DNA of 64,000 nucleotides, from IMG/VR virus record IMGVR_UViG_3300028833_000069; one strand, 5' to 3'. The stretch's first letter is position 1. Each line of letters starts with the position of its first letter. The stretch is from a virus (lineage: Duplodnaviria; Heunggongvirae; Uroviricota; Caudoviricetes). The notes beneath the pieces are model-generated. The model saw nothing but the letters and a program-made list of their open reading frames with translations, was not told where the DNA came from and did not search any database. Below are positions 30,254 to 32,936 of this stretch, piece after piece. The position numbers were made by a program, and so were the translations under genes.

Positions 30254-30554
30254 TGTCATTGTAAACATTGTATTTGTACTACTTATACTATTTTGTATAG
30301 GTATACTTATACTACAAGTTCATGAGAAAGTAAAGTATTTTCCTCATGGAGTATTCCAGGTTGTAAATCCTTTACATCATTTAGTTTTGATTTCTATTTC
30401 TGGAATATTTGCAGGCTTAATGAAATTGTTGTTCCAATATAATTGGGAAGATTTCTTTGCTGAATGGTTACTCCTTATAGCTTGTGTAGTTATTTGGGAT
30501 TTTGTCATTACAGGAACTGCTTGGATAATTTCAAAAATCAAATATAAGGTATGA
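30246..30554 (+). CDS. membrane protein
   Basis: Three hydrophobic helices. Confidence 0.4.
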   Translation: MSNVIVNIVFVLLILFCIGILILQVHEKVKYFPHGVFQVVNPLHHLVLISISGIFAGLMKLLFQYNWEDFFAEWLLLIACVVIWDFVITGTAWIISKIKYKV

Positions 30555-31051
30555 CTTGGTATTATACACTTACTGGAATAGTTTATGCTATATTTCTAGT
30601 TCAATTTCTGTTAAGCATGTTAGGTGCTGATACAGATGTTGATCTAGATCTTGATGCTGATGGAACTGCTGATTTAGGATGGTCCGATATATTTTCTTTT
30701 AAAGGTCTAATTCATTTCCTTATGGGATTTGGGGGTTGGTTATCTTTAATGGGATATAATAGAGGATCTCTTGTATGGTATGACTATATAATTGCAATTG
30801 CTTTAGGTGTGGGATTCTTTATGTCCTTATATTACCTTGGTAAAGGAATGTTGAAATTAGAAAGTTATCCAAGTGAATTAACAGGTACAGACCTTATTGG
30901 TCAACAAGCTAAAATTACAGTTATCTCAGGTGGATACTATTACATTTGTTTACCTGATGCTAGAGAGTTTTTAGCACAATCTGGTAAGCAACTTAATGTT
31001 GGAGATACTGTGCAGATTGTTGACTATGTAAATGGTATTTATATCATTTAA
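30551..31051 (+). CDS. NfeD-like membrane protein (short form, YuaF-like)
   Basis: N-terminal TM helices plus a C-terminal beta/OB-like segment GQQAKITVISGG...GDTVQIVDYVNGIYII. It sits directly upstream of an SPFH protein, as in yuaF-floT operons. Confidence 0.45.
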   Translation: MTWYYTLTGIVYAIFLVQFLLSMLGADTDVDLDLDADGTADLGWSDIFSFKGLIHFLMGFGGWLSLMGYNRGSLVWYDYIIAIALGVGFFMSLYYLGKGMLKLESYPSELTGTDLIGQQAKITVISGGYYYICLPDAREFLAQSGKQLNVGDTVQIVDYVNGIYII

Positions 31052-31073
31052 CAAAATAATAAAGTAAAAGAGT

Positions 31074-32936
31074 ATGAATTGGACAGTATTTGCTGTAATT
31101 GCAGTAATTCTGATTATCCTAGCCATCTCTGCTATCTGGCTTTTGTCTAGATACCGAAGATGTCCTAGTGATCAAATCTTAGTAGTCTTTGGTAAGGCTG
31201 GTAAGAAAGAAACAGTAGTTGATGGTAAAAAGGTAGAGACTATTCTTCCTTCTAAAATCATTCATGGTGGTGGTACATTTGTATGGCCTGTAATCCAAGA
31301 TTATAGGATGATGCAGTTGACACCTCATAAAATTCAACCTGTTGTTACTGGTCTTTCTTCACAGAATATTAAGGTTACTATTCCTGTAACTCTTACCACT
31401 GGTATTGGTACAACTGATAATCTCATGCAGAATGCTGCTAGTAGATTCTTGAGTTCTTCTATTCAGCAGATGGATAGTCAGTTGGAAGATATTATCATTG
31501 GTGAGGTTCGTTCTTTGATGGCAACTATGACCATTGAGGAAATCAATGCTGACAGAAACAAGTTCCTTGATGAAGCCAAGAAGAGAATTGAGGTAGAGCT
31601 GAACAAAGTAGGTTTTACTATCATTAACATCAATGTAGCTGACATTTCTGATAATGCCAACTATATTAACAACCTTGGTAAGAAAGCTGCTACACAGGCT
31701 CAGGCGCAAGCACAAGCTGATATAGCAGAACAAGAGAAACAAGGAGAGGTTAAGATCGCTAACACTCAGAAAGAGAAAGAAATTCAAGTAGCAGCTGCTG
31801 AAAAAGAGAAAGCTACTACTGTAGCAAAAACTAAGCAAGAAGAAAAAGTTACTGTAGCACAAGTTGCTAAGGAACAGAATATTCAACTTGCTGAAGCTGC
31901 AAGAGAGCAGGCAGAAGGTGTAGCTATTGCAGAATCTGAGCAGGCTATTGCTGTAGCAAAAGCTGAGCAGAAAGCAGAATCTGAACAGGCTAACCAAGAG
32001 TCTATCAAGCAGATTAACATTGCTAATGCTAAAGCTAAAGCACAAGCCCAAGCCGCAGCAGCAGAGCAAGGTAAGGAATCTGCTATTGCAGAAGCTACTC
32101 AGAAGAAAGAAGCTGAAATTGCTCGCTATGAAGCTGAAAAGAGAAAAGTAGCTGCTGAGGCTGCTAAAGAAGCTGGTGTAGCAGAGCAAATGGCTACTAT
32201 TGATGTTGCTAAAGCTAAAGCAGAAGCTGGTAAAGCAGAAGCTGAAGCTAAAAGAGTAACAGGTGTAGCTGAGGTAGAAGCAAAAATGACAGTTGCTCAG
32301 AAAGAGCAAGAACAGCAGATTAAAGTCAATGAGACTGCTGCAAAAGCTAAAGAAGCTGAGTTGCAGGCTAATACTATTATTCCTGCTAAGAAAGCTAGAG
32401 AGCAAGCTGTCATTAAAGCAGAGCAGGTAAAAGAAGTAGCAGTACTTGAAGCAGAAGCTAAAGCTGCACAAATCTTGAAAGAAGCTGAAGCACAAGCAGA
32501 AGCAATCAAGATGAAGCAGTTAGCTGAGGCTGAAGGTAAGAAGCAAGTGTTGTTAGCAGAAGCAGAAGGTAAGAGAGCATCTCTTATGGCTGAGGCTGAA
32601 CAGGCACAAGCTATTGCTATGGCACCTGCACTTGCATTTGACCAGATGGTTAAAGCAGCTGGTGGAAATCCTGATGTAGTTGTTCAGTACATGATGACTG
32701 ACAAGTATGAAGGTATTGTTGGAGCACAAGTTAAAGCACTTGAGCATATTCAGCTTGGCAATGTAAATGTATATGGTGATACCAATACAGGTGCACAGTT
32801 CATGCAGAGTATGATTAAGAACTTTGCTCCGATGATGGATGGTTTCAATACAGGATTGAAGGATAATGTTAAAAAGTTGTTCTTTGGTTCTAGTAAAGAA
32901 AATAAACCTGAGGTAGAGATGCCTGAGGTAAAATAA
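31074..32936 (+). CDS. flotillin-like SPFH (band 7) domain protein with long Ala/Glu/Gln/Lys coiled-coil
   Basis: N-terminal TM, SPFH core (ILVVFGKAGKK...TIPVTLTTGIG...IGEVRSLMATMTIEEIN), then about 300 aa of AEAEAKA-type repeats as in FloT/YuaG. Confidence 0.6.
   Translation: MNWTVFAVIAVILIILAISAIWLLSRYRRCPSDQILVVFGKAGKKETVVDGKKVETILPSKIIHGGGTFVWPVIQDYRMMQLTPHKIQPVVTGLSSQNIKVTIPVTLTTGIGTTDNLMQNAASRFLSSSIQQMDSQLEDIIIGEVRSLMATMTIEEINADRNKFLDEAKKRIEVELNKVGFTIININVADISDNANYINNLGKKAATQAQAQAQADIAEQEKQGEVKIANTQKEKEIQVAAAEKEKATTVAKTKQEEKVTVAQVAKEQNIQLAEAAREQAEGVAIAESEQAIAVAKAEQKAESEQANQESIKQINIANAKAKAQAQAAAAEQGKESAIAEATQKKEAEIARYEAEKRKVAAEAAKEAGVAEQMATIDVAKAKAEAGKAEAEAKRVTGVAEVEAKMTVAQKEQEQQIKVNETAAKAKEAELQANTIIPAKKAREQAVIKAEQVKEVAVLEAEAKAAQILKEAEAQAEAIKMKQLAEAEGKKQVLLAEAEGKRASLMAEAEQAQAIAMAPALAFDQMVKAAGGNPDVVVQYMMTDKYEGIVGAQVKALEHIQLGNVNVYGDTNTGAQFMQSMIKNFAPMMDGFNTGLKDNVKKLFFGSSKENKPEVEMPEVK

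Follow-up and report, generated by a model that had tools for sequence, protein, structure and literature searches.

Flotillins that are encoded beside a small membrane partner of the NfeD family are known from several bacteria, and the function of these pairs is still argued over. In Bacillus subtilis the partners are YuaF (NfeD2) and FloT (YuaG), in Escherichia coli they are YqiJ and YqiK, and Bacteroidota carry comparable operons. Here we describe such a pair in a virus. The window, by which we mean the whole 64,000-nucleotide (nt) stretch of Caudoviricetes DNA that was analysed (IMG/VR record IMGVR_UViG_3300028833_000069), contains between positions 30,551 and 32,936 two genes on the + strand, one for a 166-amino-acid (aa) membrane protein that we assign to the short NfeD proteins and one for a 620-aa SPFH protein that we assign to the flotillins (Table 1). 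Only 22 nt separate the two genes, and in the standard-code listing of open reading frames (ORFs) both start with ATG and stop with TAA. That a complete SPFH-NfeD scaffold is kept by viruses throughout a very common clade of gut phages gives these proteins an unexpected and experimentally tractable context.

In Bacteroidota (Epilithonimonas, Capnocytophaga, Chryseobacterium and metagenome-assembled genomes, MAGs, of Bacteroidales), an NfeD of ~188 aa lies directly upstream of a flotillin of ~510-525 aa, and the phage locus shares both this order and the spacing. The original prediction, made from the DNA letters without database searches, had likened the phage genes to yuaF-floT operons, and the same NfeD-flotillin order in the Bacteroidota genomes bears this out. 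The Bacteroidota flotillins are 31-46% identical to the phage ones over their full length, share with them the juxtamembrane motif SRY[KR]RCPSD, and display the same 11-residue periodicity in the long helical region that we call the wall. Their NfeD partners are homologous end to end with the phage NfeD, including an acidic loop and an SF[KR]..NF/HF motif. By contrast, the phage flotillins form a separate, virus-encoded clade and are ~100-140 aa longer, with the extra residues essentially all in the helical wall; most of them also have a 13-aa insertion in the SPFH domain, and most end in an FEEVK motif where the bacterial proteins end in ...NMAGLNLPxYLKG followed by an acidic tail. The B. subtilis operon is regulated by sigma-W and has a third gene, yuaI, neither of which has a counterpart in the phage locus.

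FloA of Staphylococcus aureus is a short flotillin of ~330 aa. Unlike the phage flotillin it lacks a long wall, and like the phage pair it is encoded in an operon with an NfeD protein. Binding of this partner makes the FloA oligomer more stable, and the complex needs no ATP to hold unfolded membrane-associated proteins (Ukleja et al. 2024, PMC11222466); we take this complex as our functional model. The SPFH-NfeD cage of E. coli QmcA and YbbJ (PDB 8z5g), which consists of 26 heterodimers (cited in PMC13086221), is built on a stomatin-like protein with a short wall, and its sequence similarity to the phage pair is low (16% and 8%). The closest solved relatives of the phage flotillin are the eukaryotic flotillin-1/flotillin-2 complexes (9bq2, 9l3g), in which the SPFH domain, long helices and C-terminal region follow one another in the same order; unlike the phage flotillin, they are hetero-oligomers of two paralogues. 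Eukaryotic flotillins are anchored by lipid modification, not by a transmembrane (TM) helix. Their complex has no NfeD partner (PMC11222466). Judged from sequence, gene order and domain layout, the phage pair is architecturally the same system as the Bacteroidota operons, YuaF-FloT and YqiJ-YqiK: every family feature that was tested was found, except that the flotillin scores below the FloT equivalog cut-off and the 166-aa protein does not match the NfeD profile PF01957 directly. Homologues of both proteins already carry the labels 'flotillin' or 'NfeD-like' from public pipelines, and the identity itself is not new; a full-text literature search turned up no discussion of a flotillin or NfeD encoded by a phage. 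One paper that came up, on phage Perkons, concerns integration into the host floA gene, not a phage flotillin.

Identity of the two proteins

The 620-aa protein matches the Pfam Band_7/SPFH profile (PF01145) with an E-value of 2.3e-25 and 90.1 bits against a cut-off of 23.6, over aa 31-222 and profile positions 4-176 of 176. Its sole NCBIfam match is the FloT model (NF058507), at 151.7 bits against an equivalog cut-off of 700. This score, far under the cut-off, marks it as a member of the flotillin family rather than a FloT orthologue, and in this respect it differs from the B. subtilis and E. coli systems. All five matches in a search of PDB sequences were flotillin-1 or flotillin-2 (best E 5.2e-19), and BLASTP aligned residues 6-620 with a Bacteroidota flotillin at 34% identity. 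In line with these matches, a Foldseek search with an AlphaFold2 (AF2) model was led by four chains of flotillin complexes (9l3g, 9bq2; E 1e-14 to 1e-12 over ~550-580 columns), and every other cage-forming SPFH protein ranked after them. The model is weak (mean predicted local distance difference test, pLDDT, 61.5; predicted template modelling score, pTM, 0.33; 70-90 in the SPFH part and 50-65 in the helices), so that the Foldseek result only corroborates the sequence evidence. By PDB sequence, Foldseek and NCBIfam alike, the protein lies nearer to flotillins than to stomatin, prohibitin or HflK/C.

The layout is likewise that of a flotillin: an anchor, the SPFH domain, a long Ala/Glu-rich helical region and a C-terminal region. 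In the AF2 model a TM helix (3-25) precedes an alpha/beta SPFH domain, then come helices spanning 197-274, 289-428 and 438-528, and the C-terminal region is helical as well (533-603). There is a single strongly hydrophobic segment in the whole protein, at aa 5-23 (Kyte-Doolittle 3.12). R26, Y27 and R28 of the juxtamembrane motif that follows it are invariant across 43 homologues, and the motif is common to bacterial flotillins too. An SPFH protein with a TM anchor was what the original prediction had proposed, and on the evidence of sequence the 620-aa protein is a flotillin.

The smaller protein was less readily placed. It has no match in Pfam or NCBIfam (E <= 0.1) or in PHROGs; phmmer against the PDB returned matches at E ~0.2-1, with the short NfeD homologue 2exd at E = 1. 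A family hidden Markov model (HMM) run against PDB sequences matched designed beta-propellers only, which we rejected as spurious, with no domain passing. Given this failure of direct profiles, the NfeD assignment rests on structure and on profile-profile comparison. The original prediction had proposed Pfam searches for both domains: PF01145 was found directly, PF01957 was not, and the NfeD identity came by these other routes.

A database search found 26 homologues of the 166-aa protein, none with a Pfam annotation. Their alignment reveals TM1, an acidic DxDxD loop, TM2 with an invariant SFKG..HF..GF motif, TM3 and a variable, beta-rich C-terminal domain; ten columns are invariant among 29 homologues (F15, D46, F50, K51, G52, H55, F56, G59, G86 and L93), and the motif within TM2 (aa 50-71) also occurs in the bacterial partners. 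The AF2 model built from this alignment (pLDDT 75.8, with 78-89 in the C-terminal domain) predicts three helices over the first two thirds of the chain and, after them, a small beta barrel whose strands fall within aa 119-165, which supports the earlier description of a membrane protein with a beta-rich C-terminal domain. The barrel is a predicted five-stranded OB fold. Structural comparison gave 8.3 for the NfeD soluble domain (3cp0), 8.3 for the Pyrococcus horikoshii stomatin operon partner (3wwv), 7.9 for 2exd and 7.3 for B. subtilis YuaF (2k14).

For the profile comparison, the bacterial partners were taken as the ORFs immediately upstream of 25 flotillin genes from Bacteroidota and other bacteria. 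PF01957 is matched by 11 of these 25 at E <= 0.01 (best E 2.7e-8; first member 29.8 bits against a cut-off of 29.1), and hhalign joins the phage family to the bacterial partners with a probability of 99.4% (E 2.1e-21, 164 columns). The phage-family HMM also directly detects 58 of 77 bacterial partners. In addition, a viral homologue in BFVD with 43% identity is named 'NfeD-like C-terminal domain-containing protein', and JGI gives one cluster member the COG1585 description ('membrane protein implicated in regulation of membrane protease activity'). The ClpP-type protease domain of long-form NfeD proteins had no match, and 166 aa leave no room for it. The predicted fold and the profile comparison thus identify the 166-aa protein as a short-form NfeD. 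Taking the two proteins together, we are highly confident of their identities.

Upon examination of the helical wall, we observed that its sequence repeats every 11 residues. Identity autocorrelation peaks at lag 11 (z 8.6), with further signal at lag 22 (z 5.6) and lag 33 (z 2.8) and next to none at lag 7 (z 0.4); the top lag in a bacterial flotillin is also 11. Of the long AEAEAKA-type coiled coil that had been predicted, the Ala/Glu/Lys-rich helical region holds up (aa 197-528), whereas a heptad coiled coil does not fit this period. Gap runs across the 43 phage homologues are overwhelmingly 11, 22, 44 or 66 residues long. Such steps keep the helical register, which would suit helices packed alongside one another in the wall of an oligomer. 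Wall length varies by sub-lineage, giving phage flotillins of 545-708 aa compared with ~500-550 aa for most bacterial ones. Apart from the 13-aa insertion, which lies in the N-terminal part of the SPFH domain in most phage proteins, all remaining extra residues are in the helical region.

In most flotillins of the phage clade a variable charged linker leads to a terminal FEEVK-type motif, with the variants MPEVK (in the window), FPPVK, FEAVK and FDDVK. None of 77 bacterial flotillins examined has such a tail, and it is missing in some phage sub-lineages, among them csAssE-Sib and a 602-aa group. The tail looks like a short docking motif; a comparison with features of the NfeD proteins gave no clear co-variation. 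The 11-residue steps of the wall and the FEEVK tail provide concrete hypotheses for structural work on SPFH cages.

Phage origin, conservation and selection

The window is part of a crAss-related phage of ~168.5 kb. A flotillin identical in sequence to that of the window is also carried on a 168,493-bp metagenomic contig, and the window contains a gene for a terminase large subunit (1085-3388, - strand, 765 aa) whose match to phrog_6681 (E 2.7e-72) spans three in-frame TAG codons that are read through. These observations confirm that the pair is phage-encoded, as had been predicted. Read with the standard code, the terminase gene breaks into two ORFs of 279 aa each. The closest deposited terminases, at 30-45% identity, are from crAss-like phages of Bacteroides, Flavobacterium, Cellulophaga and Azobacteroides. 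At 14882-14972 on the - strand is a tRNA gene with anticodon CUA (labelled 'Pyl' by ARAGORN), and this tRNA together with the terminase codons points to a reassignment of TAG in the late genes; the flotillin arm uses the standard code. The flotillin block, on the + strand arm and distant from the recoded late genes, contains no in-frame TAG and only TAA or TGA stops. Stop recoding of the pair itself is ruled out by the absence of in-frame TAG and by the TAA that ends both genes. A second suppressor-type tRNA, with the anticodon UUA, which would read TAA, is encoded at 48653-48729 (+; Rfam 64.4 bits), and TAA is the commonest stop codon here. A TAA read-through test was judged uninformative because it extends ORFs everywhere in this AT-rich sequence.

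The phage clade is widespread. A protein search for the flotillin returned 1,570 relatives at E <= 1e-10, the closest of them on contigs of 137-190 kb, and IMG/VR holds 238 viral contigs with a relative; one 657-aa variant occurs on 206 contigs. By contrast, tblastn matched the flotillin to only 6 of 50,697 deposited phage records, with convincing full-length matches only in csAssE-Sib and Vibrio phage KIT04, and megablast of 28-34 kb against phages found no match. The original prediction had called flotillin pairs unusual phage cargo, which is true of deposited phages; in the IMG/VR contigs the pair is instead a hallmark of a large and common clade of gut phages of ~145-190 kb. csAssE-Sib (OR575929) carries a 164-aa NfeD-like protein (33% identity, E 1e-22) and a 566-aa 'flotillin family protein' (43% identity), the latter without the FEEVK tail and the SPFH insertion. 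KIT04 (LC487410.1, 3180-4850), a T5-like member of the Demerecviridae, encodes a 473-aa flotillin (Band_7 E 4.6e-24) directly after a small membrane protein of 82 aa, which has an acidic DLDD turn after its first helix and no OB domain and may be a truncated NfeD-like partner. With ~30% identity over the SPFH domain and an unrelated phage family, the KIT04 flotillin probably represents an independent acquisition.

The two genes travel together. Among the best 80 IMG/VR loci, scanned with the family HMM over -50 to +300 nt, 77 have an NfeD-like gene 2-32 nt upstream of the flotillin gene. BLASTP found NfeD in 89 and flotillin in 90 of ~90 phage loci, compared with homologues of the neighbouring small membrane proteins in 0-7 (two for the 131-aa and five for the 102-aa protein directly upstream). 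The conserved unit is therefore the pair alone. Relatives whose flotillins are 87% and 55% identical to that of the window have a 168- or 175-aa ORF 13-16 nt upstream of the flotillin gene, in neighbourhoods that are otherwise different.

Three IMG/VR contigs, L113, L114 and L125 (435, 148 and 376 kb), carry the longest flotillins, of 674-708 aa, and in them the family HMM found no adjacent NfeD-like ORF. Since BLASTP finds NfeD in all but one of the ~90 loci, at least two of the three hold one, and their partner has probably diverged or been displaced. The two contigs that exceed 370 kb (L113 and L125) may come from phages of much greater size.

Purifying selection acts on both genes. The ratio of nonsynonymous to synonymous substitution rates (dN/dS), calculated for the window against two relatives, is 0.11-0.15 for the flotillin and 0.18 for NfeD, and the complete pair has been kept down to a flotillin identity of 36% within the clade; the median identity between phage and bacterial flotillins is 34%. 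A distance tree was built from 54 phage and 77 bacterial flotillins; its phage sequences were monophyletic in 30 of 30 neighbour-joining bootstraps, the tree being a quick one with a limited bacterial sample. True cellular relatives, at 31-46% identity, are many Bacteroidota as well as Planctomycetota and Gemmatimonadota. The simplest reading of these sequence relationships is that the operon was acquired once, long ago, and has since been inherited vertically under purifying selection. The phage clade probably has Bacteroidota hosts, and the low G+C content (~31%) and the lack of Shine-Dalgarno-like sequences ahead of the genes are consistent with this.

Two apparently bacterial matches at 55-56% identity, L009 (CALUTN010000183.1) and L010 (CALEBD010000406.1), were rejected as mis-binned phage contigs of this clade. 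They measure 140 and 153 kb and are filed in GTDB-species MAGs (Gastranaerophilales and 'uncultured Clostridium'), and over 9.9 kb L010 matches an IMG/VR contig at 97% identity. Their taxon labels are therefore uninformative about the host.

Possible role at the host membrane

The explanation that we favour, with moderate confidence, is that the pair is a phage copy of a short-NfeD/flotillin operon and forms a membrane-stabilising scaffold. An ancestor of the large crAss-related clade, probably living on Bacteroidota, would have taken up the operon once. Both proteins would insert in the host cytoplasmic membrane, the flotillin held by its lone N-terminal anchor. The residues before this anchor are uncharged and RYRR follows it, and together with what is known of the family this suggests an N-out, C-in orientation, so that the SPFH domain, the 11-residue-repeat wall and the C-terminal region would face the cytoplasm. 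A Lys-rich segment after TM3 of NfeD suggests that its OB domain is cytoplasmic as well. By analogy with solved SPFH assemblies, the flotillin would oligomerise into a dome-shaped cage that fences off a patch of membrane; NfeD would sit in this patch through its three TM helices, and its OB domain would dock on the flotillin and stabilise the oligomer. The pair is probably made early, before the TAG-recoded late genes, because its neighbours in the standard-code, non-structural arm are tRNAs, RtcB and NAD-salvage genes. Like the ATP-independent FloA-NfeD holdase, such phage-specified microdomains may keep the host membrane, and host and phage membrane proteins, functional during infection. Such a stabilising role would be exerted while host synthesis is shut down and would fit the genes for chaperonin, tRNA repair and NAD salvage that accompany the pair; the membrane scaffold would then join these as a further host-like module of large gut phages. 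From analogy with the cellular systems, we consider a cage-type scaffold at the host membrane likely, and a role in stabilising the membrane or the membrane proteome a tentative proposal.

A virus bears the cost of carrying the pair, which must therefore help within a single infection cycle, and this narrows the possible functions. A single-cycle benefit could also be read out simply, by comparing burst size, latent period and membrane potential between infections that have the pair and infections that lack it.

Several observations weigh against this interpretation. The flotillin model is weak beyond the SPFH domain, and both the cage and the contact with NfeD are argued from analogy. The NfeD-like protein of the window has no direct Pfam or NCBIfam match, and just 3 of 29 family members reach PF01957 at E ~0.04 (best 0.038). 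Early expression is suggested by genome position and the absence of TAG, and a promoter scan of the region stayed at chance level. The role of cellular flotillins is itself disputed, and multiple SPFH deletions in Pseudomonas aeruginosa gave little phenotype (PMC13086221). Finally, the phage-specific FEEVK tail and the extra wall length may point to some partner or function that cellular proteins lack. Taken furthest, this hint would turn the enlarged phage cage into a membrane compartment specified by the virus for a task that no cellular flotillin performs. In it the FEEVK tail would recruit a specific phage or host partner, and the cage would either shield the host membrane from abortive-infection (Abi) effectors or tether replication, assembly or another phage process to the membrane. 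We regard such a compartment as unlikely; if real, it would be an SPFH organelle-like structure without viral precedent and a way to approach bacterial flotillin function.

Other explanations for the pair can be ranked in the order counter-defence, protease control, an exclusion module and lysis timing. The cage may reinforce or repair the inner membrane against pore-forming or transmembrane Abi effectors (CBASS, retrons, gasdermin-like proteins) and so sustain the proton-motive force until progeny are finished. As we read the annotations, the arm is rich in genes often interpreted as serving counter-defence or host maintenance (RtcB, tRNAs, PRPP synthetase, nicotinamide phosphoribosyltransferase, NAD synthetase, GroEL), and phage infection does set off membrane-stress systems of the host: SPP1 induces the pspA operon, one gene of which encodes the SPFH protein YdjI (PMC11153139), and DynA stabilises membranes late in infection (PMC8844932). 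This support is purely contextual, however, and the context varies, being a replication module in csAssE-Sib and PDDEXK, tRNA-ligase and AAA genes around the 657-aa variant; the proteins match no known anti-defence family, PADLOC being uninformative here, and we give counter-defence only a small chance. Improbable as well is control of a host membrane protease, FtsH or another, that the cage would enclose or exclude in order to protect phage proteins or to time their degradation. Here the precedent is the control of lambda CII stability by HflK/C-FtsH. SPFH cages that hold FtsH are indeed among the structural matches (7vhq, 7wi3, 9cz2; E 1e-8 to 1e-11), and the JGI name of a cluster member mentioned above refers to membrane protease regulation. 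On the other hand, the protein is nearer to flotillins than to HflK/C in both sequence and fold, its NfeD belongs to the short type, which has no protease domain, and the window showed no lysogeny genes.

The original prediction had suggested that the pair belongs to a block of small membrane proteins that remodels the host membrane or excludes superinfecting phages. Six small membrane ORFs do precede the pair, with 1-3 TM-like segments each; the two directly upstream overlap in a way consistent with translational coupling, and the ORF at 28288 matches a PHROG in the category 'moron, auxiliary metabolic gene and host takeover'. The ORFs are thus real, and it is their link to the pair that fails: at 0-7 of ~90 loci, against 89-90 for the pair, they are not conserved with it, and the function of the pair does not need them. 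We also know of no role for SPFH proteins in blocking DNA entry, and a single module of this kind is a long shot. SPFH cages sequester membrane proteins, and the cage could in this way hold holins or other lysis proteins in a membrane patch and delay their triggering; the cage-type structural matches and the docking-like C-terminal motif specific to the phages would agree with this. No holin or endolysin was identified beside the pair in the window or its relatives, and the non-structural arm, where the pair is found, is remote from the TAG-recoded late genes; a part in lysis timing is a longer shot still. The original prediction had also noted that SPFH modules occur in defence islands; a reading of the pair as a defence system was dropped, since none of seven proteins of the block (the pair and five neighbours) matched PADLOC-DB v2 at E <= 0.01. 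We attach practically no weight to a generic coiled-coil structural protein with a chance neighbour, or to a host gene picked up recently and now decaying. In their favour, the helical region is of low complexity and yields a 378-aa antisense shadow ORF. The Band_7 match far above its cut-off, the full-length flotillin homology, the dN/dS of 0.11-0.18, the deeply diverged, monophyletic phage clade and the presence of the pair in 77 of 80 loci speak against these readings; profile, selection and phylogeny together refute them, and the generic coiled coil is excluded.

Neighbouring genes and other features of the window

The features of the locus are collected in Table 1. The six small membrane ORFs, recognised in a Kyte-Doolittle scan, begin at 27396, 28147, 28288, 28857, 29858 and 30246, and one soluble ORF at 27561 breaks their run (27396-30554). 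The 131-aa ORF (29858-30253) overlaps the 102-aa ORF (30246-30554) by 8 nt, and the latter overlaps the 166-aa ORF by 4 nt (ATGA). Judged by this arrangement, the two genes are probably co-transcribed, yet they are lineage-specific. We discarded the antisense ORF (31359-32495) as a shadow cast by the EA-rich region of low complexity; it translates into Ser/Phe/Leu-rich nonsense.

Table 1. Positions of the pair, its predicted domains and adjacent genes in the 64-kb window.
Feature	Position	Strand	Basis or remark
Short NfeD-like membrane protein, 166 aa	30551..31051	+	Three predicted N-terminal TM helices, acidic DxDxD loop, C-terminal OB-fold barrel
Predicted NfeD membrane region: TM1 aa 3-23, acidic loop aa 24-45 (GADTDVDLDLDADGTADLGWSD), TM2 aa 50-71, TM3 aa 76-104	30557..30862	+	AF2 helices
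Predicted NfeD C-terminal OB-fold (putative partner-binding) domain, aa 115-166	30893..31048	+	
Flotillin-type SPFH protein, 620 aa	31074..32936	+	PF01145, FloT model, PDB flotillins
Predicted N-terminal membrane anchor, aa 3-25, then invariant juxtamembrane SRYRRCPSD	31080..31148	+	Hydrophobicity, model helix 3-25
SPFH / Band 7 domain, aa 31-222	31164..31739	+	Pfam envelope; model pLDDT 70-90
Predicted Ala/Glu/Lys-rich helical wall, aa 197-528, 11-residue repeats	31662..32657	+	Model helices, autocorrelation, indels
C-terminal pentapeptide MPEVK, local form of [FM]-x-x-V-K-COOH (consensus FEEVK)	32919..32933	+	
Two overlapping small membrane-protein genes (131 aa, phrog_3878; 102 aa)	29858..30554	+	Directly upstream of NfeD
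tRNA-Glu(UUC)	29327..29399	+	~460 nt upstream of the four-gene membrane block
tRNA-Arg(UCU)	32973..33047	+	37 nt past the flotillin stop codon

Scans of 27-35.5 kb for regulatory signals found 34 sigma-70 promoter sites against 34.5 expected, with a model that does not cover Bacteroidota promoters, and 8 terminator-like sites against 3.9 expected, none of them usefully placed; these scans say nothing on operon boundaries.

The non-coding gap before the membrane block (~29702-29838, +) ends in a tRNA-like 3' half, GGTTCGAGTCCAGGTTCCCCCA, which comprises a T-arm and an acceptor strand. A complementary GGGGGAA sits ~130 nt upstream. The element, called by neither ARAGORN nor Rfam, could be a degenerate, split or intron-containing tRNA; ARAGORN run with introns on 29.4-29.9 kb and 34.2-35.9 kb found no split tRNA. 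Downstream of the pair, a mechanically called 234-aa ORF (33230-33934, +) overlaps a 73-aa ORF (33064-33285) by 56 nt. Alternative gene calls on the same sequence use a later start that gives 215 aa directly after the 73-aa gene, and this shorter version is probably right.

Among the host-like genes of the window are those for GroEL, RtcB, PRPP synthetase, nicotinamide phosphoribosyltransferase and NAD synthetase. Most of them lie in a cluster at 35936-43446 (+) that encodes an RtcB RNA ligase, a radical-SAM protein, NAD synthetase, PRPP synthetase and a nicotinamide/nicotinate phosphoribosyltransferase, and a GroEL-type chaperonin is encoded on the opposite arm (4971-6431, -). From these annotations, our reading of the cluster and the chaperonin is that they may be NAD-salvage and tRNA-repair cargo for counter-defence. 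A full-length group I catalytic intron (34686-34926, +; RF00028, 87.7 bits, E 4.9e-21) lies in a stretch of ~1.6 kb that separates tRNA-Arg(CCU) from the RtcB gene and has no long ORFs. The window has 24 tRNA genes in total, 11 of them in a tight array at 9312-10525 (-), and the sign of the GC skew flips near 18 kb, where the genes turn from the - to the + strand.

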